A stretch of DNA of 64,000 bases from an uncultured Enterobacteriaceae bacterium (GTDB lineage: Bacteria > Pseudomonadota > Gammaproteobacteria > Eutrophobiales > Eutrophobiaceae), in contig CAZGBJ010000002.1 of assembly GCA_964523895.1 (NCBI GenBank), positions 86,898-150,897 of the forward strand, written 5' to 3'. Under the pieces are notes generated by a model. It saw only the letters and a list, made by a program, of their open reading frames with translations, did not search any database and was not told where the DNA came from. Positions 21,078 through 57,898 of the stretch are shown here, piece after piece. The stretch's first letter is position 1, and each line of letters starts with the position of its first letter. Made by a program: the position numbers and the translations under genes.

Positions 21078-21101
21078 AGCTAATTGCTATCCCCGTATTT
21101 C

Positions 21102-29148: not shown

Positions 29149-29153
29149 ATAAA

Positions 29154-30521: not shown

Positions 30522-30536
30522 TAAAATATATTTTCG

Positions 30537-30800: not shown

Positions 30801-31059
30801 AATATTGTTTCGTTTCATGTTTTGTTGCTTTTCGTGCCGATATAATACGAATACAAGAATCATCAAGTTCTGCATGGATAACCAAAAGAAGTTTCAATTT
30901 TGCTCCTATACCAAGAGTTTTGAATCTCTGTTCAGCATGGTTAGGGTCTTCTATCGTCAAAGCCATGTCATCTTCCAAAGCAAATACAGCATCCGCAAAA
31001 TCAACACCATGCTTGCGAAGATTTTGGACTGCCTTGTCCTTGTCCCATTCATATTCCAT
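30775..31059 (-). CDS. brnT: BrnT toxin (DUF497 ribonuclease)
   Basis: MEYEWDKDKAVQNLRKHGVDFADA … IRIISARKATKHETKQY is a BrnT signature. Confidence 0.8.
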   Translation of the reverse strand: MEYEWDKDKAVQNLRKHGVDFADAVFALEDDMALTIEDPNHAEQRFKTLGIGAKLKLLLVIHAELDDSCIRIISARKATKHETKQYYEKTDYER

Positions 31060-31109
31060 ATACATCCAAGTATATGCACAAACTGTGCACAAATAAAGGT
31101 ACGGAAGAT

Positions 31110-41200: not shown

Positions 41201-43756
41201 TCATTGATCCAGCATTGCACGTAGTTCATATAATATTGCCAGTGCTTGTTTTGGATTGGTTGAGTCGGGGTCAATGTTTTTTAATTTTTCCAGCAAAGGA
41301 TTTTCATTAAATAAATCAGCTTGTGGTTTTTCTGTGTTTTCTATTGGGCTTTGATGTTCTATTTCATTTAAGCGATTTTTGGCAGCAGTAATAATGGTTT
41401 TTGGAATGCCGGCAAGCGAAGCCACTTGTATGCCATAGCTTTGATTTGCTGGACCCGGTTTTACTGAATGTAGTAAAACGATTTCATCGCCATGTTCAAC
41501 AACATCCATATGTACATTAACAACATTGTTTTCGTGTTCTGGTAAAGACGTTAATTCAAAATAGTGAGTAGCAAATAATGTATATGCACGGGTTACTTTT
41601 GCCAGATGTGAAGCGCAGGCCCAGGCTAATGCCAGCCCATCGTAGGTACTTGTACCGCGACCTATTTCATCCATTAAAATCAGGCTGTTGTTTGTTGCAT
41701 TATTAAGGATGTTTGCCGTTTCAGTCATCTCCACCATGAAGGTTGAACGGCCGCTGGCTAGATCGTCTGAAGCACCGATACGGGTAAATATTCTATCAAT
41801 GGGACCGATGATAGCCTTTTTTGCCGGAACATAACTGCCAATATGAGCAAGCAGTACTATCAACGCTGTTTGACGCATATAGGTTGATTTACCGCCCATA
41901 TTCGGACCAGTAATAATCAGCATTTGGTGATCAGTATCCAACGTTAAGTCATTTGCAATAAAAGGTTCGGACTGAATTTGTTCAACGACAGGGTGTCTTC
42001 CCGCCTCGATAGTAATTACTTTATTCTTTGTCAGGACAGGCGCGGTAAAATTTAACGTTTCAGCAATTTCTGCAAAGCAAAGGTAAATATCAAATTCAGC
42101 AAGTGCCGAAGCACATAGTTGCAGTTTAGATAAATAGTTAGCAATGATATCCAGTAATTGAACATATAGGATTTTTTCGCGTGCTAAAGATTTGTCCTTT
42201 GCACTTAGGATCTTATTTTCAAATTCTTTTAATTCCGGCGTAATGAAACGTTCGCTCGCTTTCAATGTTTGGCGACGATTATAATTGTCGGGGACATCAG
42301 CAGAATGGAGGCGACTGATTTCTATGTAGAAGCCGTGGACGCGATTATAGCCGACCTTTAAACCTTGAATTCCGGTGCGTTGTTTTTCTTGCTCTTCCAG
42401 ATCAGTTAAAAACTTGCCTGCATCATCACTAAGTTGTCTTAATTCATCCAATTCAGAATCATAACCCGCAGCGATAACACCACCATCGCGTATAATCAGC
42501 GGTGGCTCATCTACTAATGCACTGTTTAATGTTTCAAGTAACTCAGGAAATAAGTCAATATCTTGAGACAGGTTGTCGAGTCTGGGACTGTCAATTTTAG
42601 CCAGGTCTTGTTTAATTTCCGGCAAAAGACTCAGGCTGTCTCGAAGTTGTATCAGATCACGTGGTCTTGCTGATTTTAAAGCGACCCGTGACATAATGCG
42701 TTCGATGTCACAAATACCCCGCATGCTTTCATGGAAATCACTATGACATCGATTGTTTATTAATTTTTCTACGGCATCGTGACGTAGCCTTAAGCTGTCA
42801 TGATTGCGTATGGGTTGTTGACACCATCGACGCAATAAACGTCCGCCCATAACGGTTGAAGTTGTATCGATAACATTTAGTAGAGAGTGTGATTTTCCTT
42901 CAACTAGTCCGGTTTCAAGTTCAAGATTACGGCGTGAAATAGCATCGATTTGAATAATATCATCGGCAAGATTTATCTTTGGTGTTTGTAAATGAGGTAA
43001 GCTTATTTTCTGCGTATCATTAAGATATTGAATCAAACATCCCAGTGCTGCTACGCAGGCATCCATATCCTGACAACCGAAACCATTCAGATCGTTAACC
43101 TCATACTGTTGCTTAATAATTGATTCAGCCGTCGTTTGATTAAAGTGCCAGTCAGGACGTTTAGTCAGAATTTTGTTTTGGCTACCTAGTGTTTTTTGAT
43201 CAAATGATTCGCTAATTAATATTTCTGCAGGTTGATATTGCTCAATAATATCTTCTAAAGAGTCACCATGTTCAATTTCTAAAAGAGAGACCTGACCACT
43301 GCTCAGTTCAACAGAAGCTAAACCAATGTGATTTTTTGTTTCGTAAATAGATAATAAAATGTTTGAAACTCGTTCTTCCAGTAAAACCTCTTCAGTTATA
43401 GTTCCGGGTGTGATTATTCGAGCTATTTGTCGCTCAACTGGACCTTTACTGATAGCGGGATCACCGACTTGCTCACAGATAACAATGGATTCACCGAGTT
43501 TGATTAATTTAGCCAGGTAATTATCAACTGCATGGTAGGGCACACCTGCCATCGGGATGGCATTACCGCCTGATTTACCACGTTTAGTCAGGGTAATGTT
43601 TAATAAACGCGCTGCCTTTTTTGCATCTTCGTAGAACAATTCATAAAAATCACCCATACGAAAAAACAACAACATATCGGGGTACTCGGCTTTAAAACCG
43701 AGATACTGCTGCATTACGGGTGTATGTTGTGGGGGCTGCTGTGTTTTTACAGGCAT
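41201..43756 (-). CDS. mutS: DNA mismatch repair protein MutS
   Basis: 851 aa with N-terminal mismatch-binding (…[26 protein letters not shown]) and a Walker A ATPase (GPNMGGKST). Confidence 0.95.
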
Positions 43757-43813: not shown

Positions 43814-44743
43814 TCAACAGGACAGTGGATTAGCAGAGTCAAGCATTTTGCATTCGATAGCAGCTGACTGCATTCTCATTATTCCCTGAGCGTTGAGAAC
43901 GACACTGTATCGTTGATCACCATTAGGCTCAATATAATTTATACAGGTAGCAGCAAAGGTCCCTGCGGTCGGTGTACCAAAGTACGCTGAATTATTTGTT
44001 GTGTTTCCACCGGTTCGTTTTGATTCAATGTCAGCGCCACCACTCAATGCATGTAATGACCATATAATCCTATCAGCAAAAGGAACAATTAATTCAAAAC
44101 AGTAACCAACATGAACTTTCAGCAGGTTGGCATCTTGAAGTGATTGTGATGAGACTCCACCACCAACTAATCTTGCGTCCCGATACATTAAATTGTCATT
44201 AGGAATGGCTGTTTCAGTTGAGCCATCGACATCGATATCAACGCCAAAATCTGTAAAAGAACTTACACTTGGGTTAACCACGGTAATATTGACTAAACCA
44301 TTACTAATTTCATCTTGCACTTTACGTCTGGCACATATCACACTGTCTGAGTTGAAATTACCAATATTGGCATTGCGAACGTTTTGGGTATTAATATCAA
44401 CTATTTGAGTTGTACCTACTCTAGCTTGTCTGCCGGCATCAGTATTTAAAAAAGTACTAGAGCAATCATTGCTTGTATCTATACTGTAATAGCTGGTGGT
44501 GTAGAGCGGCGCCATATTACTGGCAAAAGCCATTTCCATGTCATCAAGAGAGGCATTGTTTATGCTACCCGTTCTAGCAGTTTGAAAGGCCGCATAGTTG
44601 AGCGTGATTTTAGCTTGGTAGATGAAAGCAAATTGTAATAAGCCCATTATCAGAAGTAACATCACCGGCAAGATAATAAGAAATTCGACCATTGCCTGTG
44701 CGTTAGAAAATTTGTTTAGCTTTTTTAAATAGATTTTACGCAT
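43814..44743 (-). CDS. TadE/TadG-like pseudopilin (Flp-type prepilin-like N-terminus)
   Basis: N-terminus …AQAMVEFLIILPVMLLLIMGL… followed by the TadE-like motif. Confidence 0.65.
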   Translation of the reverse strand: MRKIYLKKLNKFSNAQAMVEFLIILPVMLLLIMGLLQFAFIYQAKITLNYAAFQTARTGSINNASLDDMEMAFASNMAPLYTTSYYSIDTSNDCSSTFLNTDAGRQARVGTTQIVDINTQNVRNANIGNFNSDSVICARRKVQDEISNGLVNITVVNPSVSSFTDFGVDIDVDGSTETAIPNDNLMYRDARLVGGGVSSQSLQDANLLKVHVGYCFELIVPFADRIIWSLHALSGGADIESKRTGGNTTNNSAYFGTPTAGTFAATCINYIEPNGDQRYSVVLNAQGIMRMQSAAIECKMLDSANPLSC

Positions 44744-44778
44744 ACTTATCTAGAGAATATTTTCTCGAATTTGTTTAT

Positions 44779-45237
44779 TCATTTCTGTTCAATAATAGTT
44801 TTAATCCCTTCCAGCAAATCTTTCGCTTTGTCATACAAAGGGTCATCTATATCAGCATACTGTATCATTTCATTTAGACTGTAAGCCGTCTGCTTCAATT
44901 GGACAATGCTTAAGTTATACCAGGCCTTGGTATATTTTGGGTTACGAATTACAGCTTCACGGTATAGAGTAATCGCCGCCGAAGGACGATTAGTACGAAC
45001 AAATATATTAGCCAGTCTGAACCAATTTTGCGCAATTGCAGGTTTTTCTTTAACCAGAATTTGGTAACCTTTTTCGCTCTCTACCAGATCATCATTTAGA
45101 TATGCCGTGTCAGCTTGTTTTTGAATTTCAAAATAGTCGATATTGGCGCTATTGCTAGTTTCTATATTTTCTTCTTTTATGCTTGACGTATTGCAGGCTG
45201 CAAGATTAAACATCAAGATTATTGTTAGTATTCTCAT
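44779..45237 (-). CDS. TPR-repeat lipoprotein (TadD-like)
   Basis: Lipobox LAAC plus TPR repeats. Located within the tad operon. Confidence 0.6.
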   Translation of the reverse strand: MRILTIILMFNLAACNTSSIKEENIETSNSANIDYFEIQKQADTAYLNDDLVESEKGYQILVKEKPAIAQNWFRLANIFVRTNRPSAAITLYREAVIRNPKYTKAWYNLSIVQLKQTAYSLNEMIQYADIDDPLYDKAKDLLEGIKTIIEQK

Positions 45238-45243
45238 ATTAAA

Positions 45244-45597
45244 CTAGGCATTTTCATGCCATTCCAGTTGTTGTCCATTAGTTAATTGTAATCGCTCGAG
45301 GCTATCCGTTGCCAATTCTAATACCATACTTGCGGCACTTGAAGCCGCCATACGCCAGGGCTTTAGTGCCTTAACAGTTTTTATGATAGTCAATTGTTTA
45401 TCGAGAAATACCAGGTCAATGGCATAAGTCATGCCAAAGGTATGTACTGAAGAACAGGGCACGATCAATAAACCTTCGTTTTGTTTAAGCGGGGCTGAGC
45501 CTAAAAGGCCGCGCATTCTGTCAATGAAATTAGTAGTTTTTGAAACGTTCTGTATTACTCGATCATCATTAGCTCTGGTCAAGCAGCCATGGATCAT
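45244..45597 (-). CDS. DUF192-domain protein
   Basis: …GLLGSAPLKQNEGLLIVPCSSVHTFGMTYAIDLVFLD… matches the DUF192 pattern. It overlaps tadC by 4 nt. Confidence 0.7.
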   Translation of the reverse strand: MIHGCLTRANDDRVIQNVSKTTNFIDRMRGLLGSAPLKQNEGLLIVPCSSVHTFGMTYAIDLVFLDKQLTIIKTVKALKPWRMAASSAASMVLELATDSLERLQLTNGQQLEWHENA

Positions 45598-46475
45598 AAC
45601 ATTCCTTCACCCATAAACTTCATGACGATAGGGAAACCAAGAACGATAAATGTAACCGGGAAGATAAACATGATTAATGGACCTACCAGTTTAATTGGTG
45701 CTTCCATTGCCAGCTTTTCTGCACGTTGGAAACGTTCATCGCGGCGTTGTTCGGATTGAACCCTTAAAACAGTTGCAAGCGAAGCCCCCATTTTTTCTGC
45801 CTGAATAATGGAGCTAACAAAGCTGGTGATTTCAGGGATATCAAGTCGTTCTGCCATACGTCTTAAAGCATCTGCACGTGACAGTCCTGAACGTAGATCG
45901 CGAAGTACAATTGCAAATTCATTACGCAATGGCCCAGGAGGTGCTTTTTCCATTGCTTGACCTAATGCACCTTGTAAGTTCAGGCCGCCTTCCACACACA
46001 TAGTAATAAAATCGAGATAGACTGGTAGGCTGCGAATGACAGCAGTATTGCGTTTCTTTCGGGTGTCAGATAACCATATCAACGGCAACATAAAACCAAC
46101 TATTGGCATAAAGATAAACCAGATAGGTTGAAAATTATTGAGGCAGATCATAATAAACAGTGCCATACCAGGTGCGATTATGGCTGAGATGATACGTAGG
46201 GCTATAAATTGTTCTGCATTGAGAAGATATCCTACACCAGAATTAGTAATTTTTGTTTCCGTGCTTTCAAGTATCTCGTAGGGTAAATAGACACAGAAAA
46301 AATTAGCGATGATTTGGATAAAGGGCCAGATTAATTTTAATTTCCAGGATAAAGGATCCATAAATGCCCTGTCATCCTGATTGACCATGGCATAGAGAGT
46401 GCCAATCAGTAATGTAAACAGAATAGTAGCAAGAGCATAAGAGATGATGCTACCTTGAAAATAAATGCTATCCAT
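45594..46475 (-). CDS. tadC: Tad pilus inner-membrane platform protein TadC (T2SS-F fold)
   Basis: T2SS-F domain. The start is set at the internal ATG at 46475 to avoid a 100-nt overlap with tadB. Confidence 0.8.
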   Translation of the reverse strand: MDSIYFQGSIISYALATILFTLLIGTLYAMVNQDDRAFMDPLSWKLKLIWPFIQIIANFFCVYLPYEILESTETKITNSGVGYLLNAEQFIALRIISAIIAPGMALFIMICLNNFQPIWFIFMPIVGFMLPLIWLSDTRKKRNTAVIRSLPVYLDFITMCVEGGLNLQGALGQAMEKAPPGPLRNEFAIVLRDLRSGLSRADALRRMAERLDIPEITSFVSSIIQAEKMGASLATVLRVQSEQRRDERFQRAEKLAMEAPIKLVGPLIMFIFPVTFIVLGFPIVMKFMGEGML

Positions 46476-46489
46476 TATTTCGTATCCTA

Positions 46490-47371
46490 TTAAACATCGA
46501 TACTTGTTATTTTGGTAATCATAAAATAGCCAAGTATCTCCATCATGATGATAATGGACAGAACGATATAACCGATGGTGGTTGTCCATAGCTTACTCAT
46601 GGCTTCTGGTTCCATGAAATTAAGTAATACGCCAAGCAAGACAGGTAGCCCAGTCATCACAATACCTTGAAGTTTACCTTGAGCAGTTAGACTCTGGATT
46701 TTACCTTCCATCATGCCTTTTCGACGTAGGGTTTCTCCCAGCGTTTCCATAGTTTCTGCAAGGTTGCCACCGACTTCACGGTTAATCAGAAGGGCAGTGA
46801 CGAGCATGCCAAAGTCCTGAATAGGAATGCGTTCTTCCATTTTTTTTAATGAATCTTCAAACTCTACCCCGAGCCGTTGTTCTTTGAGGAATAATTCAAA
46901 TTCTTGTGAAAGCGGCGCAGGTTGTTCTTTGACCAAACTTTCAAGAGCAATCGTCAGACTAGCACCGGCACGCATTGCACCAGAAATCATAACCAGGCCA
47001 TCCGGTAATTGCTGTTCAAAGCGTTTCAGGCGTTTATTGCGCATAGAACGATAAAAGAGAGAAGGTAACAAAATAATAACGACCAACATGCCTAAGGTTG
47101 CAGGTAGGTCTTCTGTTATAAACCAGGTCAGGATGGGCAAAACGATAATTGCAACAATATTGATCATAAACATCTGATTGGCATCAATAGATAAAAACAT
47201 ATCAGACATATTACTACTGGCCGTCTGAGTGAAATTCTCTTTGTAATTATCCATAAATGTTTGCGCTTTCCTTAAAAACGCAAACCACAGACAGGCCATC
47301 GTAATAAAAACGGCAGCCAGCGTTAGATAATAACTGGTACCGGCGGTGAAATTGATTATGGCATCAAACAT
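46490..47371 (-). CDS. tadB: Tad pilus inner-membrane platform protein TadB (T2SS-F fold)
   Basis: 293 aa with the T2SS-F domain and characteristic TM topology. Confidence 0.8.
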   Translation of the reverse strand: MFDAIINFTAGTSYYLTLAAVFITMACLWFAFLRKAQTFMDNYKENFTQTASSNMSDMFLSIDANQMFMINIVAIIVLPILTWFITEDLPATLGMLVVIILLPSLFYRSMRNKRLKRFEQQLPDGLVMISGAMRAGASLTIALESLVKEQPAPLSQEFELFLKEQRLGVEFEDSLKKMEERIPIQDFGMLVTALLINREVGGNLAETMETLGETLRRKGMMEGKIQSLTAQGKLQGIVMTGLPVLLGVLLNFMEPEAMSKLWTTTIGYIVLSIIIMMEILGYFMITKITSIDV

Positions 47372-47375
47372 TTTC

Positions 47376-49064
47376 TTAAGAAAATATTGACATATCTACG
47401 GGTAAACCACGTTGACGCATTTCTTCATAAAAGTGGGGTATTGCGCCTGTTGCTTCGAAATGCCCTTTTACTTTACCATTTTCATCAAATCCCTCTTGTT
47501 GATAACGAAAGATGTCTTGCATTGATACGATGCCAGATTCAACGCCTGTTATCTCAGTGATATTGGTAAGGCGACGACTACCGTCGGAGTAGCGAGATAT
47601 TTGAACGATCATGTGAATAGCAGAAGCGACCATTTCCCGAATAGCTGATACAGGTAAATCCAGGCCTGACATCATTACCATGACTTCTAAGCGGGCGATC
47701 ATATCCCGGGGTGTATTCGCATGAGCCGTTGTTAAGGAACCGTCATGGCCGGTATTCATAGCTTGTAACATATCCAGTGTTTCACCACCACGACACTCAC
47801 CAACAACGATTCTATCAGGTCGCATACGTAAACAGTTTTTCACCAAGTCACGAATAGGAATGGCGCCTTTGCCTTCCAGGTTTGCCGGCCGTGCTTCAAG
47901 GCTGACCAGGTGGGGTTGTGTTAATTTTAGTTCTGCAGCATCTTCGACGGTAATGATACGTTCGCCAGGGGGAATAAAATTAGACAAAACATTCAATAAG
48001 GTTGTTTTACCACTGCCAGTACCGCCAGAAATAAGAATGTTCATATGGTTATTAACAGCGGTTTCCAGAAACTGTACCATCCCGTCATTTAATGCGCCAA
48101 AGTTAACCAAATCGGAAGCCTGTAACTTTTGTTTGGCAAATTTTCGAATCGTCAGACAAGGGCCACGTAATGCCAGTGGGGGAATGATGGCGTTAACACG
48201 TGAGCCATCTTTTAATCGGGCATCAACCAGGGGTGAGCTTTCGTCGATGCGCCTTCCCAAAGGGGAAACGATACGCTCGATGGACGTCATGACAGCATCA
48301 TCACTTGAAAATGTGATATCAGATAAGGTGAGCTTGCCAGATTGCTCAATAAAAATTTCATCAAATTTATTGACCATGATTTCTGTGACAGTATCATCAG
48401 CAAGCAATTGTTCTAGCGGTCCTAATCCAACCGCCTCATTCAATACATCCTCTAAAAGTTTTTGCTTATCTACATCAGCGGGTAATTTGGAACCCATCTC
48501 ATCGATGATTTCTTTAACCATACCCTCTACGTGTTTACGTAAACCGTCCTCATCCATACTGCTGATATCAGTGCGACGTAAATCCATTGCCGCGAGTAAT
48601 TCTTCGTGTACTCGGTTACGCCATTTGAATTTTTCGTTGTGCTGCAGGTTGACTATTGTTTTACTGAGTTCTTCTGATTCATCCAGGACTTCATGTTGCT
48701 GAACACCGATGACGGTCTTCATGTCTTCAAAGGCATCGTCATCGTCATCATCGATTTCCTCTGCCGAATCAGCGCTGATACCCGCCTGTATATGGTAACC
48801 CGCAATAATGATTTTATCCGCGGAGCGGATTGGACCATGATGATCAACATCTTCATCATTAACTTCGATGCGACTTTGACCGGTTTTATCTTCTATAAAA
48901 AGGCCTTCAGATGTACGGCTGATGACAGCATGATAGGGAGCTACTTTCCAGCCACGTAATTGTATGAAGTTATCGCGTGCCTTGCCGATAGTGCATTCAG
49001 CAACCGGGCAACTAAAGTTCTTAATTCGTTCGCCTTTACTGTTATTAACTAAAACATCAAACAT
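47376..49064 (-). CDS. tadA: Tad/Flp pilus ATPase TadA/CpaF with N-terminal FHA domain
   Basis: N-terminal FHA (…CTIGKARDNFIQLRGWKVAPYHAVISR…SRIEVND…) and a C-terminal CpaF ATPase (ISGGTGSGKTTLLN; VGECRGGE; HDGSLTTAHAN). Confidence 0.85.
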   Translation of the reverse strand: MFDVLVNNSKGERIKNFSCPVAECTIGKARDNFIQLRGWKVAPYHAVISRTSEGLFIEDKTGQSRIEVNDEDVDHHGPIRSADKIIIAGYHIQAGISADSAEEIDDDDDDAFEDMKTVIGVQQHEVLDESEELSKTIVNLQHNEKFKWRNRVHEELLAAMDLRRTDISSMDEDGLRKHVEGMVKEIIDEMGSKLPADVDKQKLLEDVLNEAVGLGPLEQLLADDTVTEIMVNKFDEIFIEQSGKLTLSDITFSSDDAVMTSIERIVSPLGRRIDESSPLVDARLKDGSRVNAIIPPLALRGPCLTIRKFAKQKLQASDLVNFGALNDGMVQFLETAVNNHMNILISGGTGSGKTTLLNVLSNFIPPGERIITVEDAAELKLTQPHLVSLEARPANLEGKGAIPIRDLVKNCLRMRPDRIVVGECRGGETLDMLQAMNTGHDGSLTTAHANTPRDMIARLEVMVMMSGLDLPVSAIREMVASAIHMIVQISRYSDGSRRLTNITEITGVESGIVSMQDIFRYQQEGFDENGKVKGHFEATGAIPHFYEEMRQRGLPVDMSIFS

Positions 49065-49082
49065 AAGTGTTCCTTGGAAATT

Positions 49083-50567
49083 TTAATAAACGATATCAAG
49101 AGATTTTTCATCAATTACGTTGATGATTTTTTCAATATGATTATTGGTATTTTGAATGTCTCTCTGATTAAGTTCAGACTGTGCATCAAATACGGTAGGT
49201 GTAACAAATATAACCAATTCACTCTTTTTATCTCGGAAGCTTTTGGATTGAAATAGTTGTCCGAGTATGGGTATATCCATAAGGAATTTAAGTCCACTGA
49301 TATCTTTGGATGCCTCCTGATTGAGCAAACCTGACATGACTAACGTTTCACCTGATCTGAGAATAACATCAGCATCAGACGTTCTTGTAAGTAGCCCCGG
49401 AATACCATTAATAGCAACGGAATTATCAATTGAACTAAGTTCGGTCGAGACTTTTGCTCGAACATTGTTATTAATATCTACGACAGGTTGTACAGAAAGT
49501 TTTATACCAAACTGTTTAAACGTCACTGTCGTGCCATTGGTGTTCGATGTTTCTATAGGGAACTCACCACCCGCATGAAAGTTTGCTTCACCACCGCTAC
49601 GAGCTGACAAGCGAGGTTCAGCTAGAATCAATGCATTACCTGAACTAACTGCAAAGTTAATTCGAGATGTGATTTCCGAGACTATACCAAAGTATCCGAG
49701 TGCACTGCGTCCTATCTCAGGCGCCAAACCAGCAAAGGATGTATTTGGCAATTCTGAAGCTGCAAATGTTGCATTACTTACGGCGCTAGAAGCTACCGCA
49801 GCTGCAGGACCAGCAACAGATGAATCCCACTCAACACCCAAAGATTCAAGGTAGTTTTTATTAAAATCAGTGATCTTGGTTTGAACGATCACCATTTTAT
49901 TATCTGGACTTTCCATATTGATACTGTCACCGCTGCGAGTCAGATCCATGACTTCTGCAAATACGCTTTTCACGGTGTCAATTGAGTCTTTATATCCTTC
50001 ATCAATGTTTCCAGTCAGGACAATATGTTCACCGACCAAGCGTACATTTAATCCATCAACATCAGAAAGCATGTCTTCGATTTCCAGTTTCTTTCTGACT
50101 AGAGTATTTACGGCAAAATTGATATTAATGACGACTTCTTCATAGGTTTCTTTGATGCTGTTGATTGAATCTTCATGTCCAAAGGCAACCAGTCCTGACA
50201 GTACAATTCGATCACCAACAATATCTATTGCAAGTCCATCTATATCAGAGAAGATCCCTTCTAATTCAGCTTTTCTTTTAATGAGATTGCCAGATTGTTC
50301 AATGACATGAACGGTGTAATCATCTTCATTGCCGTTATTAAACCAGATATGTAAATTACTGGTGCCAGCGGACTCTGCGATAAGTAGTAATTGGCCATTA
50401 TTGAGCAATGAGTTACTGGCGACTTCAGGATCACCCATTGCGATACGTTCGATATCTCCGAGCCGGAGGATCTTTATCTCACCAACGTAAAGTTCTATTT
50501 GTTCTCCCGCTATACAAATACTTGTTGTAAATAGCAAAAGACTAGCCACGAATATATTTTTAATCAT
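49083..50567 (-). CDS. rcpA: Tad secretin RcpA/CpaC
   Basis: Signal peptide, two BON-like N-terminal repeats and a C-terminal secretin domain (…LVMSGLLNQEASKDISGLKFLMDIPILGQLF…VIFVTP). Confidence 0.85.
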   Translation of the reverse strand: MIKNIFVASLLLFTTSICIAGEQIELYVGEIKILRLGDIERIAMGDPEVASNSLLNNGQLLLIAESAGTSNLHIWFNNGNEDDYTVHVIEQSGNLIKRKAELEGIFSDIDGLAIDIVGDRIVLSGLVAFGHEDSINSIKETYEEVVININFAVNTLVRKKLEIEDMLSDVDGLNVRLVGEHIVLTGNIDEGYKDSIDTVKSVFAEVMDLTRSGDSINMESPDNKMVIVQTKITDFNKNYLESLGVEWDSSVAGPAAAVASSAVSNATFAASELPNTSFAGLAPEIGRSALGYFGIVSEITSRINFAVSSGNALILAEPRLSARSGGEANFHAGGEFPIETSNTNGTTVTFKQFGIKLSVQPVVDINNNVRAKVSTELSSIDNSVAINGIPGLLTRTSDADVILRSGETLVMSGLLNQEASKDISGLKFLMDIPILGQLFQSKSFRDKKSELVIFVTPTVFDAQSELNQRDIQNTNNHIEKIINVIDEKSLDIVY

Positions 50568-50710
50568 GATGTATATTTCCTGATTCCCTTAAACAATATA
50601 TTTTAATTTTTATAAACAGTCGTATTAACTATGACTGATATTTTTTCTAATTTTAGAAACTGATTTATGAGCTAAATACAGCTATGAGTTAGCTCTCTTT
50701 CTGTTTCAAA

Positions 50711-50992
50711 CTAATCCTCGACGGGTAAGTTGACTTGTTTCGCCAACCCATCCTCCGACTGTCCACCTACTATCATTTTTATAGAACGTCCTTTTTGTTT
50801 TTTTATAACCCTGGTACTGATAATTCCTTCAGGCAATTTTTTTGACATAGTGTCTGTATTAATTGTCTGTTTATCATCAGAGCTCATATCCTCCACTAAT
50901 GATTCTTTATAACTGTCTTCTTCTGCTGCAAGTGTAAGATAACTCCATCCCATCATAATAATGATGGGATAGAGCAATGGTCTAATGCGCAT
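50711..50992 (-). CDS. Small secreted protein sharing a C-terminal motif with the CpaB-like protein
   Basis: Signal peptide. Its C-terminus IVGGQSEDGLAKQVNLPVED parallels the CpaB-like C-terminus IIGGASEDGVAKSTTVSVP. Confidence 0.4.
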   Translation of the reverse strand: MRIRPLLYPIIIMMGWSYLTLAAEEDSYKESLVEDMSSDDKQTINTDTMSKKLPEGIISTRVIKKQKGRSIKMIVGGQSEDGLAKQVNLPVED

Positions 50993-51004
50993 AAGCCTTA
51001 ACAG

Positions 51005-53116
51005 TTATTTTTTCTCTCCACTTTCTTTATCTTTTGGTACAGATACGGTTGTTGATTTAGCAACGCCATCTTCACTCGCACCACCGATGATAAGGTCGTA
51101 GTTCTCAGGCGTTTTTAACTCACCTGTAATCGACTGATTTTCGGCAATCAATGCAATCTCATCTGAACTTAGAATCTTGCCATTAGCGCCAATCATGATA
51201 TTGCTTGGGTCGACAATATTGCCATCCTTATCAACAATATCTCCATTCTCATTAATGGTGTAACCAGCTGCTTCTAATTGTGCGCGACTGGCGAGTGTCT
51301 TACCGCTCGCGTCAACCAGGTTGCCATTTTCATCGACACCCGATGCGACCTTAATACCAGACGCTTCGAGTTGTTTCTTACTGAGAATCTCGCCGTTAGC
51401 AGAAGTGATCAAATCATCTTTATCAATGACATTGCCATTCGCATCAACAATCTCACCGTTCTCGTTAATGCTGAGACCGGCTGCTGCGAGTTGCTCTTTG
51501 GTCATGATGCTGCCGTCGGCTGCAACGACCAGGTTATTCGGATCAACGATGTTTCCATCCTTATCCACGATTTGTCCATGCTCATTGACCGTCAGTCCGG
51601 CTGCGGCTAATTGTTCTTTACTTAAGACAGAGCCATCAGCGGCGATATTTAGATCTTCAGGATTAATGACGTTGCCATCTTTATCAACAATCTCGCCATT
51701 CTCATTGACACTGTAGCCTGCGGCTGCCAATTGCTCCTTCGTTAATACGGTGCCATCTGCATTTACGATGATATCTTTGGTTGAAATAACCTTGCCATTG
51801 GCATCGACGATTTCACCATTTTCATTGACGCTGAGTCCGGCTGCTGCCAATTGCTCTTTGGTCATGACACTACCATCAGCGGCAATAACAACATCATTTG
51901 CATTAACGACATTACCGTCTTTATCAACCAGTTGTCCGTTTTCATTGACAGTGAGTCCGGCGGCGGCGAGTTGTTGTTTGTTCAACACAGTACCATCTGC
52001 GGAAACACAAAGGTCAGTTACATTAACGGCATTGCCATCTTTGTCTACGACTTGTTTATTGTCATTGATATTATAACCAGCAGCAGTCAGTTGCTTGCGA
52101 TTGATGAGTTTGTTTTTATCTGCATCGATTAGATTACCATTTATGTCGATGTCTACAGCACAAGCGGCGCGAGAAGCGCGATCTTTCTCTGCTGCAGCCA
52201 TACGCGAGGCATTGCCAAATAGATCAGTAGGGGCAACAGAAGTAAAAGAAGAAGCACTTTGATCATCCCGATTACGTAATAATGCCAACATGTCACCTTT
52301 GTCTTCAGCCAAGGTAATCAGAGCCGCCTGGTCTGGCGTTACTTCAATAGTGATATGAGAAAAATGGGTTTCAGTACGGCGTTGTGGTTGTCGTAATGCA
52401 TCCAGCGTTTCTTGGTAGGGGTCTCGACCGGTAGCTAATACAGTGATATTTTGCAGTACAGGTATAATAACGTCAGTAGGTGAAATACCGGCTAATAGTG
52501 CTTCAGGTTCTTCTAAGGTATCCGTAGCTGCCAAAAGTTCAGCCGGGATCATATCTTGCGCTTCTTGTGGTAGTAGTTCTAACAGACCGGCTTCTTTTGC
52601 AGCGATGATCATTGCGGGATTAATACCCGATGTTGCAAATGGAATATTGACAAAAACATCGATGCGATTACCCGGACGTAGAAAGCCGCCAATAGAGTTT
52701 ACATCATCAACAGTAATAGTAATGGCGCGTTTACCTGGAGGTATGATGTCAGAGAAGTCACGAGGAAAATCTTCATCCACAAAGCTTCTTAATAGGGGTT
52801 TCCCTCTACCTAGGTTGGTGGTCAGCGAGCGTCCCAAATAACGGTCAAATTCACTTGGGTAAATAGCATCTTCATGTACATAATTGGTAGGGACAGGACG
52901 CTGACTAAAAAGGTTTTGTGTTATCTCTTGTCCTTTGCGTAAATCGCCAGTTGCCACAACGACCATGATTTGCCTGGCCTTGTCTTGTTCGTATTTTGCT
53001 TTTAACTGCGCTTCACGTGTATTTAGATAAAACATTGCTAGCAAAGCGGCGATAATACCGAACCCGATTGCACCTGCCAGTAAAGGCATAGAATTTTTTT
53101 CTTGTTTTTTAGCCAT
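51005..53116 (-). CDS. cpaB: CpaB/RcpC-family Flp pilus assembly protein with a long C-terminal tandem-repeat extension
   Basis: N-terminal TM helix and SAF/CpaB domain (…QIMVVVATGDLRKGQEI…), followed by 8 tandem 40-aa repeats of KEQLAAAGLxVNENGxIVDKDGNVVxxxDLxIAADGSVxT. At 703 aa it is far longer than the usual 250-300 aa. Confidence 0.8.
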   Translation of the reverse strand: MAKKQEKNSMPLLAGAIGFGIIAALLAMFYLNTREAQLKAKYEQDKARQIMVVVATGDLRKGQEITQNLFSQRPVPTNYVHEDAIYPSEFDRYLGRSLTTNLGRGKPLLRSFVDEDFPRDFSDIIPPGKRAITITVDDVNSIGGFLRPGNRIDVFVNIPFATSGINPAMIIAAKEAGLLELLPQEAQDMIPAELLAATDTLEEPEALLAGISPTDVIIPVLQNITVLATGRDPYQETLDALRQPQRRTETHFSHITIEVTPDQAALITLAEDKGDMLALLRNRDDQSASSFTSVAPTDLFGNASRMAAAEKDRASRAACAVDIDINGNLIDADKNKLINRKQLTAAGYNINDNKQVVDKDGNAVNVTDLCVSADGTVLNKQQLAAAGLTVNENGQLVDKDGNVVNANDVVIAADGSVMTKEQLAAAGLSVNENGEIVDANGKVISTKDIIVNADGTVLTKEQLAAAGYSVNENGEIVDKDGNVINPEDLNIAADGSVLSKEQLAAAGLTVNEHGQIVDKDGNIVDPNNLVVAADGSIMTKEQLAAAGLSINENGEIVDANGNVIDKDDLITSANGEILSKKQLEASGIKVASGVDENGNLVDASGKTLASRAQLEAAGYTINENGDIVDKDGNIVDPSNIMIGANGKILSSDEIALIAENQSITGELKTPENYDLIIGGASEDGVAKSTTVSVPKDKESGEKK
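51190..52150. repeat. Tandem 120-nt coding repeats (about 8 copies) inside the cpaB-like gene
   Basis: Periodic DNA/protein repeat. It also generates spurious antisense ORFs (51278-52132 +). Confidence 0.75.
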
Positions 53117-53154
53117 AATCCGTTTTACTTTTTAAGTTGGTATTTGTTTGATGT

Positions 53155-53520
53155 TTAAAAAAAACTGGTTGCCTCTTCAGTTATCTGATCGACTAGATAA
53201 TCTTTGCCCATGTCTAAATCAGGTACTTCCAAGTCAGGAAAACTGGTGTATTCCTCTAATGCTGTAACTAGAGCTGACGGGTCAATTGGATTGATGACAT
53301 CTGCATCAATTAAGTAATCTGCCAGATTGTCATGATCGGGTAGGGTAGATAAGGAACTGGCGTACGAATAACCTTGATACTTATCATTCATGACCCCGAG
53401 TAGATCCAGTAATACATCTCCGCCAGGGCCGACAGTCATTACCATGACACCAAACACCAGAACGACAACATATTCGACCATACCCTGGCCTCGCTGCTTT
53501 ATGTGCTGTTTCGTTTTCAT
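53155..53520 (-). CDS. Flp-like prepilin/pseudopilin with an acidic C-terminal tail
   Basis: N-terminus …QRGQGMVEYVVVLVFGVMVM… carries the Flp-type G/xxxxEY prepilin motif and hydrophobic helix. Confidence 0.5.
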   Translation of the reverse strand: MKTKQHIKQRGQGMVEYVVVLVFGVMVMTVGPGGDVLLDLLGVMNDKYQGYSYASSLSTLPDHDNLADYLIDADVINPIDPSALVTALEEYTSFPDLEVPDLDMGKDYLVDQITEEATSFF

Positions 53521-53536
53521 GTCAATCCCAATTATC

Positions 53537-54292
53537 TTAAAAAATAGAGTTAGTTACAGAATTGATGACGATCCGAGTGTCATTATTATCTTTTATGAAT
53601 ATCATAGTAATTCTATTTCGTTTACTTTTAAAGACTAAACTGTGCATTTTGCCTACGCCGCCAAGATCCGTATCTGTTTCGTTAGTCCAGCCCAAGCCCT
53701 CATAGTGGCTGCGGTAGAAAGCAATATTATTTTCTATCGTATGGTTATTGGAAATAAGTAACGTTTTTGCCTTTTTCCCGGGATCTTTACTGGTTGATTC
53801 ATTGAGTACTTGGCTGTCCCTCATTTTGGGTATGCCTTTACCCCGTTCAAAATCAAAATCGTCCATATCGGGTAGACGACCCAGAGATAAATAGCCCCAG
53901 GATCCTTTACCAGTACGCTCATTGACTTGAACCTGCACCGTAAGCAGATAACCTTTTTCAGCGCGGCTGATAATATACCAGGGAGCCGCTGCAATATTTT
54001 CCAAATAGCCAGGCATATCTTTGCCAACCGGATTTCGCCATTCCTTACGATAAAATTCCACGACGTCTTCTATCGACTTATTACTATGAAATGCGCGTAC
54101 AGCTGATGGAATGCCATTAATTTCCATATTTTGTCCGACCCATTCGACGCTTGCTTGCGGCGGCGGTGGAAAATCAGGCGCGGCGCTGAGTATGGTTGGA
54201 TTCAAACATATAACGATCAGAGCAAACGTTAGCCATGGAGATTGGTTCATAAGTCTATATGTTCGATTAGTCAACATCATGGTGCCAAGCAC
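53537..54292 (-). CDS. Hypothetical secreted protein in the tad operon
   Basis: Signal peptide and no known domain. It overlaps the upstream gene by 16 nt. Confidence 0.45.
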   Translation of the reverse strand: MLGTMMLTNRTYRLMNQSPWLTFALIVICLNPTILSAAPDFPPPPQASVEWVGQNMEINGIPSAVRAFHSNKSIEDVVEFYRKEWRNPVGKDMPGYLENIAAAPWYIISRAEKGYLLTVQVQVNERTGKGSWGYLSLGRLPDMDDFDFERGKGIPKMRDSQVLNESTSKDPGKKAKTLLISNNHTIENNIAFYRSHYEGLGWTNETDTDLGGVGKMHSLVFKSKRNRITMIFIKDNNDTRIVINSVTNSIF

Positions 54293-55368
54293 TCTCGTTC
54301 AGCAAGTGTGCGAATCACATCAAAATCACACATACCGGCATCATTACATGAATGAGCGCCAATGGTGTCTCCTGTATTCGGGTCAATCAGTCGATCGGGG
54401 TGTGTGGCGTCAATATCAATATGTCCGAGCCACAAACTGCCTTTGTCATCTGCTGGATATATACCTCCTGGATTACACAGGCGTAGTTCAGGCGCAAAGA
54501 TGGTTACGGCATTCCAAATATCTGTCATGCCTGGAATTAGAGTAAACAAAGAAGCTAACATCGTGATCGGTGCCGTACCTCCCACTTGATTATAGGTATG
54601 AACTTTACCGCCTGCATTCCAGGCATTTGATAGCACTGCGGCGCTACTATTAAAATCCAGTGTGCCGCCAGTTAGTTCATTGGATGTACCGGCTACCCCA
54701 TTCATATTGTTGTAATTTGTCACGAAAGTGGGATTCACAGCCACCTGCATTGAGATGGTTGACTCAGCATAAGCATCATTATTGATTGCATCAAACCCGA
54801 CATTGGAGCCCACAAGCCCCATTAGATCACCGAAAATCTCGAAGATGAAACCAATACCATCACTGATGACTTGAACGATGTCGCCGAGTACGGGTACGGT
54901 CGGTGTGTCTTCTGAGCTTCGCAAACTCGCAGTTGCTCCATCAACACCGGAGTATAAAATATTGCCTGCATGATCGGTCCAGAGTGGGTTTCTACTTGCA
55001 GTGGTCCAGTCAGTGACTGAATCTGTACTGGTAATCGGCAAGGTCGTTGTTTCATTACCGGGATTGGTAAAAAAACGTTGCCGCGCCTCTTGTTGAGTCT
55101 CTACTGTAGACTTGAATGGTTGAGTAACAATAGCAGTACCACTGTCATCTTCGAAGCCCGACATGATTTCTGAATTACTGTCATACCAGACAGTGTACTC
55201 CCATGCTTGATAACGTGAGGCCTGAATAGCTGAATGTTTAATATCGATATATTTTGCCAATAGTGAGACACCAAGAAAGAGGGGTACAAGAGCGAATGAG
55301 GCACAAACCAAAAATTCAGTCATAGCTTGACCGCGTTCACTTTTGAATATTCTGTTAATCAGTATCAT
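54277..55368 (-). CDS. TadE-like pseudopilin
   Basis: N-terminus …ERGQAMTEFLVCASFALVPLFLG… shows the TadE-like motif. Confidence 0.7.
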   Translation of the reverse strand: MILINRIFKSERGQAMTEFLVCASFALVPLFLGVSLLAKYIDIKHSAIQASRYQAWEYTVWYDSNSEIMSGFEDDSGTAIVTQPFKSTVETQQEARQRFFTNPGNETTTLPITSTDSVTDWTTASRNPLWTDHAGNILYSGVDGATASLRSSEDTPTVPVLGDIVQVISDGIGFIFEIFGDLMGLVGSNVGFDAINNDAYAESTISMQVAVNPTFVTNYNNMNGVAGTSNELTGGTLDFNSSAAVLSNAWNAGGKVHTYNQVGGTAPITMLASLFTLIPGMTDIWNAVTIFAPELRLCNPGGIYPADDKGSLWLGHIDIDATHPDRLIDPNTGDTIGAHSCNDAGMCDFDVIRTLAERECLAP

Positions 55369-55369
55369 T

Positions 55370-57307
55370 TTAAAATGGTAAATAACTCAATAGATCGCCA
55401 AAAATAGTATTAAATGAGCCTGTGAGGTTGATAAAATTTTCTTTTTGTTGAATGAGTAAAGCAAGTATACGGTCAGCATAACTCGTCTCGATTAATCGCG
55501 CTTGCCAGTAGGGGTTGAAGGCATTTCCTGTCTCTGTATAACCATCCCCACGATGAAAATGGGAGGCCAGATTATCGGTAGGTCTGGCAAAGTAAAGTTC
55601 TGATTTTGATAAGACAGCCAACTCATCATCAGCGAGATCCTCGGTAAGGGAGAAGCGACCCGTGGGTTCGCTGTTAGCAGGAGTGGTGCTATCAAAATCG
55701 GGTTCGTCTTGCACCAATCCAATAATAACATTCGGCGCTCCGACTCCCATGAAGGACTCATGTCCCGAATTTGAATCAACATAATAGGGCAGGCCTTTAT
55801 AACTTTTGTTGACTCGGTTACCGACAGTTGTTTGCAGTGGTTCAAATGAAGATGGATGGATACCATAAGGCCCTGTTCCTGGTACCGTTACGTACCAGGC
55901 CGCCAGATTATTAGCGGCTTCTCCATATTGATCATTTTCGACAGGACCCGGGTTCGTCATATGCCCAGAATTCAAGTTATTGTCTGTTTTACCGACCTCT
56001 GCAAATCCGGCAGCAAAAGGGACACCGGTGGGGACTGGAATAGAGGGAATGATAGGTATATCAATGCCCCAAAAACTCACAGTCAGACTGAGCGAAGAAT
56101 CACCGAAGTCTAGTTCTCCACCTACGTCGAGTAGATCTTCACATGCTCCAAGTATGCAACCCTCAACCCAAAGTCGAAATCGCAAATAAATATCAAGAAA
56201 TAGACCGGTTGTATCGGCGGCGGACCAGTTAACGTTTCCGGCACTGACATTACCAGACGTGGGTAAGACAAAACGCATTTCAGTGCCACCTCTGCGTTCC
56301 AAAGATATATCAAGGTAAAACTCAAATTCAAAACCGGCCTCAATACAGCCGACGGCACAAGGACCGTAGGGGCCAAACGTTTCACTTTCATCGATATCTA
56401 TGGGAGGAAACGCTTTCAGTTCCCAACCTGGACGCCCATCTGCTAACTCTTGAGTAGTGCAGAACAAGCAGAAGGGATCCTGACCGCGGTACATACTGAA
56501 GGGATCACGGGAATCTCTAATCAGGGCTTGCAGGCGGGCATAACCATAGCCACCATCATAATCTCCATTTGCGTCTTCAGTGCTACCATAATCAGCGACG
56601 TCGACCGTTGTTGCGCCATAACCAGGGATGCCTCCAGCACTATATACCGTTGTAAATTGGTCGCCGGGTAGGCTGGGGTGTAGACCTAAAGTGGCAATAT
56701 GTGCAATAAGTGAAATAATACCGAAATCAGAGAGTTTGGCACCGGGCGGACCATTTTGTGTGATCGTGTCATCCAGTACACCAATAGAAGAAATAATACT
56801 GACGATATGCAATATGGTTGAGGCAAAACCGTAAATTTGATTAATGATGTGTAGTGCAGATGTGATCCCATTGGCTAGGGTCTTCATTGCCGTAATTGCT
56901 ACTCCCCCACCTGCTTTCCAGACGCTAGTAATTGCTGAAACGATGGGGGTTGAAGTCCCTAAAGTGATTGGTGAGAACAGTAGTTTGTCGTAAAGATCGA
57001 GATATTGGGCAAATGAATTGAAATGGTATGCCCAGGATGCCAAGCCAACGCTTTGGCCGATGGCGACTTCATTAGCGACGATGCCCCGATTGATATAAGC
57101 GGTGAAATTCATGTCTCGCGCTTCTACCGTAGACATACTATAGGCAGCGGCATCTGCAGCATTTTGCAACTGCATTTTGTTACTGGTGAGTTTCCCCATC
57201 TTGAACAGGGTGAGGGCGGAGACGACCAAGATTGCCATAAACAGCATCACCATCACCGCAGCCTGACCGCGTTGTGAAGAATGACTTATGGACTTATATC
57301 CTGACAA
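55370..57307 (-). CDS. TadG-like pilus assembly protein
   Basis: N-terminus …QRGQAAVMVMLFMAILVVSAL…NAADAAAY… matches the Tad-like PF13400-type N-terminus. 645 aa. Confidence 0.7.
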   Translation of the reverse strand: MSGYKSISHSSQRGQAAVMVMLFMAILVVSALTLFKMGKLTSNKMQLQNAADAAAYSMSTVEARDMNFTAYINRGIVANEVAIGQSVGLASWAYHFNSFAQYLDLYDKLLFSPITLGTSTPIVSAITSVWKAGGGVAITAMKTLANGITSALHIINQIYGFASTILHIVSIISSIGVLDDTITQNGPPGAKLSDFGIISLIAHIATLGLHPSLPGDQFTTVYSAGGIPGYGATTVDVADYGSTEDANGDYDGGYGYARLQALIRDSRDPFSMYRGQDPFCLFCTTQELADGRPGWELKAFPPIDIDESETFGPYGPCAVGCIEAGFEFEFYLDISLERRGGTEMRFVLPTSGNVSAGNVNWSAADTTGLFLDIYLRFRLWVEGCILGACEDLLDVGGELDFGDSSLSLTVSFWGIDIPIIPSIPVPTGVPFAAGFAEVGKTDNNLNSGHMTNPGPVENDQYGEAANNLAAWYVTVPGTGPYGIHPSSFEPLQTTVGNRVNKSYKGLPYYVDSNSGHESFMGVGAPNVIIGLVQDEPDFDSTTPANSEPTGRFSLTEDLADDELAVLSKSELYFARPTDNLASHFHRGDGYTETGNAFNPYWQARLIETSYADRILALLIQQKENFINLTGSFNTIFGDLLSYLPF

Positions 57308-57392
57308 TGTTAACTCCGTTAAATTGCCAGAATTATCTGAGAATGGGCTTTATTCTTTAATATTGCTGGCTTTTATTATTCTTATAGACGGT

Positions 57393-57420
57393 GCTTCTGC
57401 CAGCCTAAGGCTGGCAGAAG
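57393..57420 (-). promoter_or_regulatory. Perfect 12-bp stem-loop immediately downstream of flp (possible attenuator or mRNA stabiliser)
   Basis: cttctgccagcc / ggctggcagaag with a 3-nt loop. No canonical U-tract follows. Confidence 0.35.
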
Positions 57421-57448
57421 ATGTCATTCATACTTTAATTAAGGCTAA

Positions 57449-57691
57449 TTATTGTACAGTGTCACTGTCTACGTAGGTTGCCATACCTCTTTGGGTCTCT
57501 GCAGCACCACCCTCAGTATAAGTATCTGCAGTTGCAGTGCCACCGGATAGCTCTGCCGTCATGTTACCCATTTGGTCGGTAATGGTGTCGCCAAAGACAC
57601 TATAGATACCGATTGCTGCAATAGCGATTAGCGCAACGATGATGATGTATTCTGTCATGCCTTGACCTAACTGTTTCATAAAACGTTTCAT
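57449..57691 (-). CDS. flp: Flp-family major pilin
   Basis: MKRFMKQLGQGMTEYIIIVALIAIAAIGIY: Flp prepilin motif (G/xxxxEY) and hydrophobic helix. 80 aa. It is the first gene of the tad operon. Confidence 0.8.
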   Translation of the reverse strand: MKRFMKQLGQGMTEYIIIVALIAIAAIGIYSVFGDTITDQMGNMTAELSGGTATADTYTEGGAAETQRGMATYVDSDTVQ

Positions 57692-57854: not shown

Positions 57855-57898
57855 ATGCCAGACAACAAATTCATATCATTTTGAGGTGGAATACAAAC

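Follow-up and report, generated by a model that had tools for sequence, protein, structure and literature searches.

A Tad/Flp pilus operon with an FHA-fused motor ATPase and without TadZ or TadV at the locus in an uncultured gammaproteobacterium

Gene content of the tad operon

We analyzed a 64,000-nucleotide stretch of DNA, referred to as the window (contig CAZGBJ010000002.1 of assembly GCA_964523895.1, positions 86,898 to 150,897 of the forward strand), from an uncultured Enterobacteriaceae bacterium placed in the Eutrophobiaceae by GTDB, and examined the Tad/Flp (type IVc) pilus operon that it carries. The operon comprises 14 close-packed minus-strand open reading frames (ORFs) at window positions 43814-57691, with intergenic spacing of -16 to 143 nt, and is flanked by htpG and mutS. 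Families were assigned by Pfam and NCBIfam profile searches. All ORFs were present on the minus strand, in the order and at the coordinates given in an initial annotation of this DNA. They are listed below in the order of transcription with their flanking genes (aa, amino acids; the arrow marks the predicted leader cleavage site).

57881-59854, plus strand: htpG, flanking gene
57449-57691, minus strand: flp1, major Flp-type prepilin, 80 aa; leader MKRFMKQLG↓QGMTEYIIIVALIAIAAIG; called on size, position and motif
55370-57307, minus strand: TadG-like large pseudopilin, 645 aa, TTG start; PF13400 (Tad), 1.7e-07
54277-55368, minus strand: p363, TadF-like pseudopilin; leader ERG↓QAMTEF; position conserved in subtype loci
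53537-54292, minus strand: p251, periplasmic two-domain protein, membrane-anchored or secreted; subtype signature
53155-53520, minus strand: flp2, second Flp-like prepilin, 121 aa, acidic tail; leader QRG↓QGMVEY
51005-53116, minus strand: CpaB/RcpC alignment protein, 703 aa; TIGR03177, 1.6e-40; RcpC, SAF and DUF3659 repeats
50711-50992, minus strand: p93, small secreted protein, 93 aa; C-terminus IVGGQSEDGLAKQVNLPVED resembles that of CpaB
49083-50567, minus strand: RcpA/CpaC secretin, 494 aa; PF00263, 4e-38; PF13629 (pilus N-terminal domain), 1e-13
47376-49064, minus strand: FHA-fused TadA/CpaF motor ATPase, 562 aa; T2SSE, 1e-63; FHA, 28.3 bits; TIGR03819, 1e-102
46490-47371, minus strand: TadB platform protein; PF00482
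45594-46475, minus strand: TadC platform protein; PF00482; probable start at M39 of a 331-aa ORF
45244-45597, minus strand: DUF192 protein; PF02643, 2e-16
44779-45237, minus strand: TadD-like TPR lipoprotein; TPR_16 and TPR_14; lipobox LAAC
43814-44743, minus strand: TadE-family pseudopilin, 309 aa; PF07811, 2.6e-12; leader SNA↓QAMVEF
41201-43756, minus strand: mutS, flanking gene

Of the hallmarks of a Tad/Flp (type IVc) system, all but TadZ/CpaE and TadV were found, namely a TadA/CpaF ATPase, TadB and TadC, a Flp pilin, an RcpA/CpaC secretin, an RcpC/CpaB protein and TadE/F/G-type pseudopilins; TadB and TadC, two adjoining PF00482 (T2SSF) proteins, represent a paralogous inner-membrane platform pair. 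The start of tadC is most likely nt 46475 rather than 46589, and relatives are called as 293 aa. Core genes and core order are shared with the canonical Tad loci of Aggregatibacter actinomycetemcomitans, Caulobacter crescentus and Pseudomonas aeruginosa (Flp-type pilin, TadE/F/G-like pseudopilins, CpaB/RcpC, RcpA, TadA/CpaF, TadB, TadC and a TPR lipoprotein at the TadD position). The window operon departs from these loci both by what it lacks, namely a TadZ/CpaE in the interval from secretin to ATPase, TadV/CpaA/FppA, and RcpB/CpaD, and by what it adds, namely an FHA fold and acidic linker on the ATPase, p251, p93, flp2, DUF192 and a repeat insert of ~330 aa in CpaB. The pilin motif also differs, being G↓QGMTEY in the window and G↓xTAIEY in canonical Tad.

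Absence of TadZ and TadV from the locus

The initial annotation had noted that the localization factor TadZ/CpaE and the prepilin peptidase TadV/CpaA are missing from the locus, and wider searches bore this out. Pfam scans of window ORFs of at least 120 aa outside the operon identified neither a ParA/CpaE-like protein nor a Peptidase_A24 (A24) domain. Hidden Markov models (HMMs) for TadZ and A24 were built from families of related loci, whose CbiA/ParA and Peptidase_A24 identity was confirmed with Pfam. Across six-frame fragments of at least 30 aa from the 64-kb window, the A24 HMM gave no match better than E = 0.28. The sole TadZ HMM match in the six-frame window (26603-27307) fell on a LuxR-type response regulator, in its receiver domain, and was rejected as TadZ. 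A further ~10 kb of upstream contig carried housekeeping genes only, with no TadZ/CpaE and no A24.

Relatives were taken from 80 tad loci recovered by scanning GTDB species, each represented by one genome. No A24 gene was found in the 10 proteobacterial loci of at least 15 kb that encode an FHA-fused TadA (FHA loci), compared with 22 of 38 non-FHA loci (P = 0.0009), and none was present anywhere on a 129.6-kb Moraxella bovis plasmid with a tad operon of the FHA type. A TadZ HMM match on this plasmid was rejected as a plasmid ParA. These data support the absence of TadV from the locus as a trait of the proteobacterial subtype described below. Published models treat tadV as a possible 'loner' (PMC6668835), it is documented that different systems can share a prepilin peptidase (PMC6668835; bioRxiv 10.64898/2026.07.08.737194), and recent models class TadZ as a non-core, Tad-specific element (bioRxiv 10.64898/2026.07.08.737194; PMC6668835).

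Mutual exclusivity of FHA and TadZ

The presence and position of TadZ were tallied in 77 species-level tad loci, with the window clade counted once and an upstream flank required. In the 16 FHA-TadA loci TadZ was never adjacent, fused or elsewhere, and all 16 had none. In the 61 non-FHA loci it was encoded directly upstream of tadA in 43, fused to the TadA N-terminus in 12 and elsewhere in one, with none in the remaining five (planctomycetes L045, L067, L069 and L083, and Pseudobacteriovorax L037). TadZ was missing, in other words, from 16/16 FHA-TadA versus 5/61 non-FHA loci (Fisher P = 1.5e-12, uncorrected for phylogeny). Loss of TadZ thus accompanies FHA fusion, and the operon is a distinct architectural variant of Tad, as the initial annotation had suggested.

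A neighbour-joining tree of the ATPase core placed the beta-/gamma-proteobacterial FHA-TadAs in one clade and the other FHA-TadAs (Myxococcota, "Delta", Lentisphaerae) beside or within lineages of TadZ-TadA fusions, the Kil-like ones nesting among the fusions. Because FHA-TadA lineages adjoin or nest in fusion lineages, the N-terminal slot of TadA is apparently held by either TadZ or FHA, a pattern that fits functional replacement. A fused module of this kind has a counterpart in Bdellovibrio bacteriovorus TadZA (bioRxiv 10.64898/2026.07.08.737194), in which an N-terminal docking/localization module is joined to TadA by a linker, as in the window; there the module is TadZ (ParA/MinD-like), whereas the window has an FHA fold in its place and no TadZ. 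The B. bacteriovorus tad loci also have no tadV, and the authors tested shared prepilin processing with another type IV filament system.

The same tally bears on whether the system might function canonically, with stand-alone tadZ and tadV genes elsewhere in the genome and the FHA domain merely a regulatory add-on. The 'loner' status of tadV (PMC6668835), the location of tadZ away from tadA in some planctomycetes (L043) and the ~76 kb over which this genome was searched are all compatible with such an arrangement. Against it, TadZ was adjacent or fused in 55/61 non-FHA loci versus 0/16 FHA loci, a split that would be unexpected were TadZ needed, and the M. bovis plasmid is without tadZ and tadV throughout. 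We regard canonical function in trans as distinctly unlikely.

TadZ-TadA fusions were identified in L014, L016, L018, L020, L021, L024, L030, L033, L041, L047, L064 and L080, and were ~700-810 aa in size (1260 aa in L030). They extend well beyond Bdellovibrio, to Omnitrophota, Elusimicrobia, WOR-3, Eremiobacterota and Oligoflexia.

The FHA domain of the motor ATPase

The N-terminal FHA domain reported for the ATPase was confirmed by a Pfam match of 28.3 bits (cutoff 20.7) over aa 24-86. The protein is arranged as an FHA fold (aa 1-95, nt 48780-49064), an acidic low-complexity disordered linker (~aa 96-145) and a T2SSE domain (aa 211-491, 1.1e-63); its TIGR03819 match (1.2e-102) lies narrowly below the cutoff of that model, and it shares 47-60% identity with the CpaF proteins of the 80 loci. 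Canonical FHA domains that recognize phospho-threonine (pThr) bind the phosphate through a Gly-Arg pair, a Ser-x-x-His motif and a Ser/Thr-Asn-Gly loop, corresponding in Rad53 FHA1 to the conserved positions G69/R70, S85, H88 and T106/N107. Alignment of the window FHA with Rad53 FHA1 and EmbR revealed G27-K28, A42-x-x-H45 and a Q63-S64-R65 loop instead of the canonical set: the phosphate-binding Arg is replaced by Lys and the Ser by Ala, and the SxNGT loop has lost its Asn in the window clade. Conservation of the domain in this clade is strong: among 121 close homologues, K28 was present in 121 and A42 in 117, H45 and N69 were invariant and the loop positions were variable. Throughout the proteobacterial clade the Ser is replaced by Ala or Gly, the Arg position is occupied by R, K or S and the loop Asn is missing, except that the M. 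bovis copy retains an NGT loop. In contrast, the stand-alone FHA protein of the same window (20385-21077) has all of the canonical residues.

The nearest sequence match in the PDB was the KIF13B FHA (3fm8, E = 0.007), ahead of EmbR. FHA folds without pThr residues are also found in EssC, the type VII secretion system ATPase (PMC4925161). In the EssC N-terminus and in KIF13B the pThr-contact residues are likewise replaced and the fold is attached to a secretion or motor ATPase, although the likeness to the window FHA is limited to the fold. Given the replacement of Arg, Ser and Asn, the residues that contact phosphate, the window FHA is most likely phosphorylation-independent, and it offers a caution that not every bacterial FHA domain is a phospho-threonine sensor.

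This result does not favor the proposal of the initial annotation that the logic of localization and assembly had been replaced by phospho-threonine recognition. In that scenario, modelled on Fha in type VI secretion and on a proposal for Kil, the FHA domain would read a pThr mark set by a Hanks-type kinase, and Ser/Thr phosphorylation would switch assembly or placement of the Tad motor. Consistent with this, the FHA match exceeds the Pfam cutoff; a CHASE2 Ser/Thr kinase, a PP2C phosphatase and the canonical stand-alone FHA protein are encoded in the window (20385-24439); a Ser/Thr kinase (STK) gene adjoins the L006 tad operon; kinases and phosphatases occur in Kil-like FHA-TadA loci; and the FHA of the corresponding published ATPase class has been called pThr-binding (PMC12019362). 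Set against these points are the replaced phosphate-binding residues in close homologues and the fact that the stand-alone FHA of the same window keeps them. In addition, 9/10 large proteobacterial loci have no kinase within 10 kb, the window kinase lies ~20 kb away in a separate CHASE2/two-partner-secretion cluster, and that Hanks-type cluster showed no synteny with tad loci elsewhere, the only syntenic kinase or phosphatase in the proteobacterial loci being the STK of L006. We consider phospho-threonine recognition by the motor unlikely.

The architecture itself is known: FHA-CpaF proteins have been published as 'class III' (FHA-intrinsically disordered region-ATPase; Achromobacter xylosoxidans E3HIW0), mainly from betaproteobacteria (PMC12019362), and these share with the window ATPase the order of FHA, disordered linker and CpaF core. 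Class III relatives in our scan (Alcaligenaceae, Castellaniella, Thauera, Burkholderiales) formed one clade with the window ATPase. PMC12019362 reads the class III FHA as a pThr binder and does not mention CpaE/TadZ; in contrast to that description, the FHA of this clade is without the pThr residues and its loci are uniformly without TadZ and TadV.

A conserved proteobacterial subtype

The window ATPase and its relatives at 76-94% identity form more than 120 clusters from marine metagenomes, with close relatives labelled "Gammaproteobacteria bacterium", "marine bacterium B5-7" or "Legionellales bacterium", and the htpG/tad/mutS arrangement was also present on a 2.66-Mb contig (GCA_038142205.1). 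Synteny comparison of related loci revealed that the layout recurs across beta-/gamma-proteobacteria and on the M. bovis plasmid, in the order flp, tadG-like, p363, p251, (flp2), cpaB, rcpA, FHA-tadA, tadB, tadC, DUF192, (tadD), tadE. The full order was found in Chromatiales (L006), a "Deltaproteobacteria" metagenome-assembled genome (L009), Oleiphilus (L011) and Granulosicoccus (L079); tadD was not detected in Quisquiliibacterium (L013), nor tadD and tadE in Alcaligenaceae (L035), and the order was partial in Acidithiobacillus ferrianus (L010). The M. bovis plasmid (NZ_CP087831.1, from a cultured host; L086, 68367-91242) carries a complete tad operon of the FHA type that shares the Flp motif; in the PGAP annotation its genes are called ordinary pilus or hypothetical ones. 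The layout therefore represents a conserved subtype, widespread but little described, and not a one-off. Four marks distinguish it: the Flp motif GQGMTEYIIIVAL, the p363 and p251 pair, DUF192 directly after tadC, and the FHA-linker-TadA motor. A neighbouring regulator (LuxR-type response regulator, histidine kinase or STK) was not consistently syntenic across subtype loci.

The M. bovis plasmid is of the Dot/Icm type, with genes for RHS-repeat toxins and a lytic transglycosylase directly after the tad operon on the same strand. This context is suggestive of horizontal transfer of the subtype and, possibly, of a connection with antagonism in M. bovis.

Comparison with the Myxococcus xanthus Kil system, described as having an FHA-fused ATPase and "a single ATPase" (PMC8460266), raised the alternative that the operon specifies a Kil-like device for contact-dependent killing or secretion assembled from Tad parts, rather than an adhesive pilus. 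Kil and the window share the N-terminal FHA on the ATPase and the absence of TadZ, and the RHS toxin genes directly after the M. bovis plasmid operon are in keeping with such a function. However, Kil has many extra FHA proteins, the prepilin peptidase KilA, a short secretin without N0 and no TadD or TadG (PMC8460266), whereas the window operon encodes no extra FHA protein, kinase or PP2C, retains the TadD-like and TadG-like proteins and has a secretin of 494 aa that includes the pilus N-terminal domain. Moreover, no toxin gene adjoins the window operon, mutS being next, and its ATPase belongs to a clade distinct from the Kil-like ones. A killing device is, in our assessment, very unlikely.

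The other FHA-TadA loci of the scan, the Kil-like L015 and L026 together with L017 and L027, also differed from the subtype. The canonical FHA residues R/S/H and SANGT are kept in L015 and L026, and R/S/H without the loop Asn in L017 and L027. STK genes are present in L015, L026 and L027 (with PP2C also in L027), extra FHA proteins of 720-810 aa in L015, L017 and L027, an A24 peptidase in L015, L017 and L026, and another ATPase gene from the same family in L015, L026 and L027. The proteobacterial subtype has no STK or PP2C, extra FHA proteins, A24 or second ATPase, with the exception of the STK upstream of the L006 operon. Two kinds of TadZ-less FHA-TadA system can therefore be distinguished, and phospho-signalling logic fits the Kil-like kind and not the subtype of the window. 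The strict exclusivity of FHA and TadZ and the degenerate proteobacterial FHA were in no paper found and appear to be undescribed in the open-access literature, in which FHA or TadZ-less Tad loci were covered by the Kil, class III and Bdellovibrio papers only.

Prepilins and pseudopilins

The Flp_Fap match of flp1 is weak (21 bits compared with a cutoff of 32.2), and its assignment consequently relies on where it lies, its size and its GQGMTEY motif. The GQGMTEYIIIVAL motif is near-invariant in Flp across subtype loci and continues as GQGMTEYIIIVAL(I/V)A. A class-III leader, (R/L/N)(G/A)↓Q(G/A)xxE(Y/F), is common to the five prepilin-like proteins counted in the initial annotation: four leaders follow (R/L)G↓Q(G/A)xxE(Y/F), TadE has Ala at -1 and the TadG-like protein is without the Glu. 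If the leader is cut after the Gly that precedes Gln, Glu occupies position +5, with Tyr at +6 in flp1. The three TadE/G-like pseudopilins among them were identified by PF07811 (TadE), by PF13400 (TadG-like) and, for p363, which had no Pfam match, by the leader motif only. Homologues of the TadG-like protein occupy the same position in L006, L009-L011, L013, L023, L035, L055 and L079. The extra Flp-like prepilin, flp2, does have an acidic tail, with 16 acidic residues and one basic among 61, and homologues are present in L003, L006, L009 and L011.

If cut at Gly/Ala↓Gln, all mature pilins and pseudopilins of the subtype, in the window those encoded at 57449-57691, 53155-53520, 54277-55368 and 43814-44743, would begin with Gln, which could cyclize to pyroglutamate.

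CpaB, p93 and p251

The gene initially described as cpaB-like was confirmed as a member of the CpaB family and refined to a 703-aa CpaB with an insert of approximately eight 40-aa repeats. The protein consists of a transmembrane segment, SAF/RcpC domains, the repeats (…KEQLAAAGLSVNENGEIVDKDGNVI…, ~51154-52129) and a C-terminal motif, LIIGGASEDGVAKSTTVSV. In P. aeruginosa the beta-hairpin at the C-terminus of RcpC binds the N-domain of RcpA (PMC12307814), and the repeats are therefore placed in the linker before it, between the RcpC domains and the hairpin motif. CpaB is 703-750 aa in close relatives and 278-642 aa in other subtype loci. A weak PDB match of the repeats was to a designed 8-blade propeller (Tako8, E = 9e-4). 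Long antisense ORFs over the repeat stretch are repeat artefacts.

p93 (50711-50992) ends in IVGGQSEDGLAKQVNLPVED, a motif almost identical to the one that closes CpaB, IIGGASEDGVAKSTTVSVPKD (51005-51100). p93 was found in the close marine clade only. Its C-terminus mimics that of CpaB, for which the corresponding hairpin in P. aeruginosa RcpC binds the secretin, and p93 may therefore compete or cooperate at that site. Matches to the p251 HMM came only from loci of the FHA-TadA proteobacterial subtype. The possibility that p251 is a hidden peptidase or TadZ was rejected, since the protein is periplasmic and has two domains of the Mog1/PsbP/DcrB-like kind.

DUF192 as a companion of tadC

The stop codon of tadC and the start codon of the DUF192 gene overlap by 4 nt (ATGA), in agreement with the translational coupling proposed initially. 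DUF192 was present in 34/77 species-level tad loci, and 27/35 matches examined, from many phyla, lay within 300 nt downstream of tadC. It occurs in tad loci of Firmicutes, Chloroflexi, Acidobacteria and Proteobacteria, whether or not these encode TadZ/TadV, and for this reason we consider it a general Tad companion. A role as stand-in for TadV or TadZ was rejected, as DUF192 coexists with both in many non-FHA loci. Single-sequence PDB searches gave no match for DUF192 or p251, and a DUF192 profile matched only the uncharacterized structures 3m7a and 3pjy. No link between DUF192/COG1430 and Tad was found in the open-access literature, including searchable published lists of Tad components. The association with tadC points to an overlooked Tad component.

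A proposed TadZ-independent pilus

We consider it probable, from the sequence features described above, that the operon encodes a functional type IVc pilus in which phosphorylation-independent FHA docking replaces TadZ and prepilins are cleaved in trans. One operon would then specify a complete, outer-membrane-spanning Tad/Flp machine in an uncultured marine gammaproteobacterium. The ParA-like hub TadZ would have been lost in the beta-/gamma-proteobacterial subtype, and the task of docking the motor and placing it would have passed to the fused FHA fold, acting as a phosphorylation-independent protein-protein docking module in the manner of the EssC or KIF13B FHA folds. The five prepilin-like proteins, with their common motif G↓Q-x-x-x-E-Y/F, would be cut by an A24 peptidase encoded elsewhere, for which PilD/GspO or an orphan TadV are candidates. 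We infer the docking role, the in-trans peptidase and actual piliation. A broader claim, that the subtype constitutes a separate Tad lineage with FHA as a TadZ-like hub, a host A24 peptidase and a portable module that includes p251, p363 and DUF192, is advanced tentatively.

Several points weigh against the TadZ-independent pilus. The search reached ~76 kb of the genome and an orphan tadZ or tadV may exist elsewhere, a situation with a precedent in planctomycete L043, where tadZ is kept apart from tadA. A Hanks kinase/PP2C/FHA module lies ~20 kb from the tad operon in the same window, and the Lys in the Arg position of the motor FHA could contact phosphate. The AlphaFold2 model of the full-length ATPase, built on a shallow alignment (77-94% identity), had a pLDDT of 49 and was unusable, so that the FHA fold rests on the Pfam and PDB sequence matches. 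The 80 loci derive from the first 600 pattern matches, a sample neither exhaustive nor random; the exclusivity statistic ignores phylogeny; and the ATPase tree was made by neighbour-joining only.

TadZ is treated as a Tad-specific hub that places the machine and is used by genome-mining models to recognize Tad, and a proteobacterial lineage appears to be without it. This lineage spans abundant marine bacteria, Achromobacter-type betaproteobacteria, Acidithiobacillus and an M. bovis plasmid, always with an FHA domain on the motor, and it makes the role of TadZ and its possible substitutes directly testable.

Other genes in the window

A Hanks-type signalling cluster (18057-24439, ~20 kb from the tad operon) is followed by two regulatory genes and by a two-partner-secretion-like set (27580-36866) over which the GC content climbs to 0.44-0.46.

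18057-20318, plus strand: CHASE2 and adenylate/guanylate cyclase
20385-21077, minus strand: stand-alone FHA protein, canonical
21102-21929, minus strand: PP2C phosphatase
21929-24439, minus strand: CHASE2 and Ser/Thr kinase
24536-26431: histidine kinase
26600-27307: LuxR-type response regulator
27580-29148: ShlB/FhaC-type transporter
29154-30521: FecR-domain protein
31074-36866: 1930-aa Gly/Thr/Asn-rich protein, no Pfam match; N-terminal hallmark of a two-partner-secretion domain, …VFLINPNGIVFG…

A partner-switching pair is also encoded at 15899-17613, where a GAF and SpoIIE (PP2C-type) phosphatase gene overlaps that of an HATPase_c_2 anti-sigma-like kinase.

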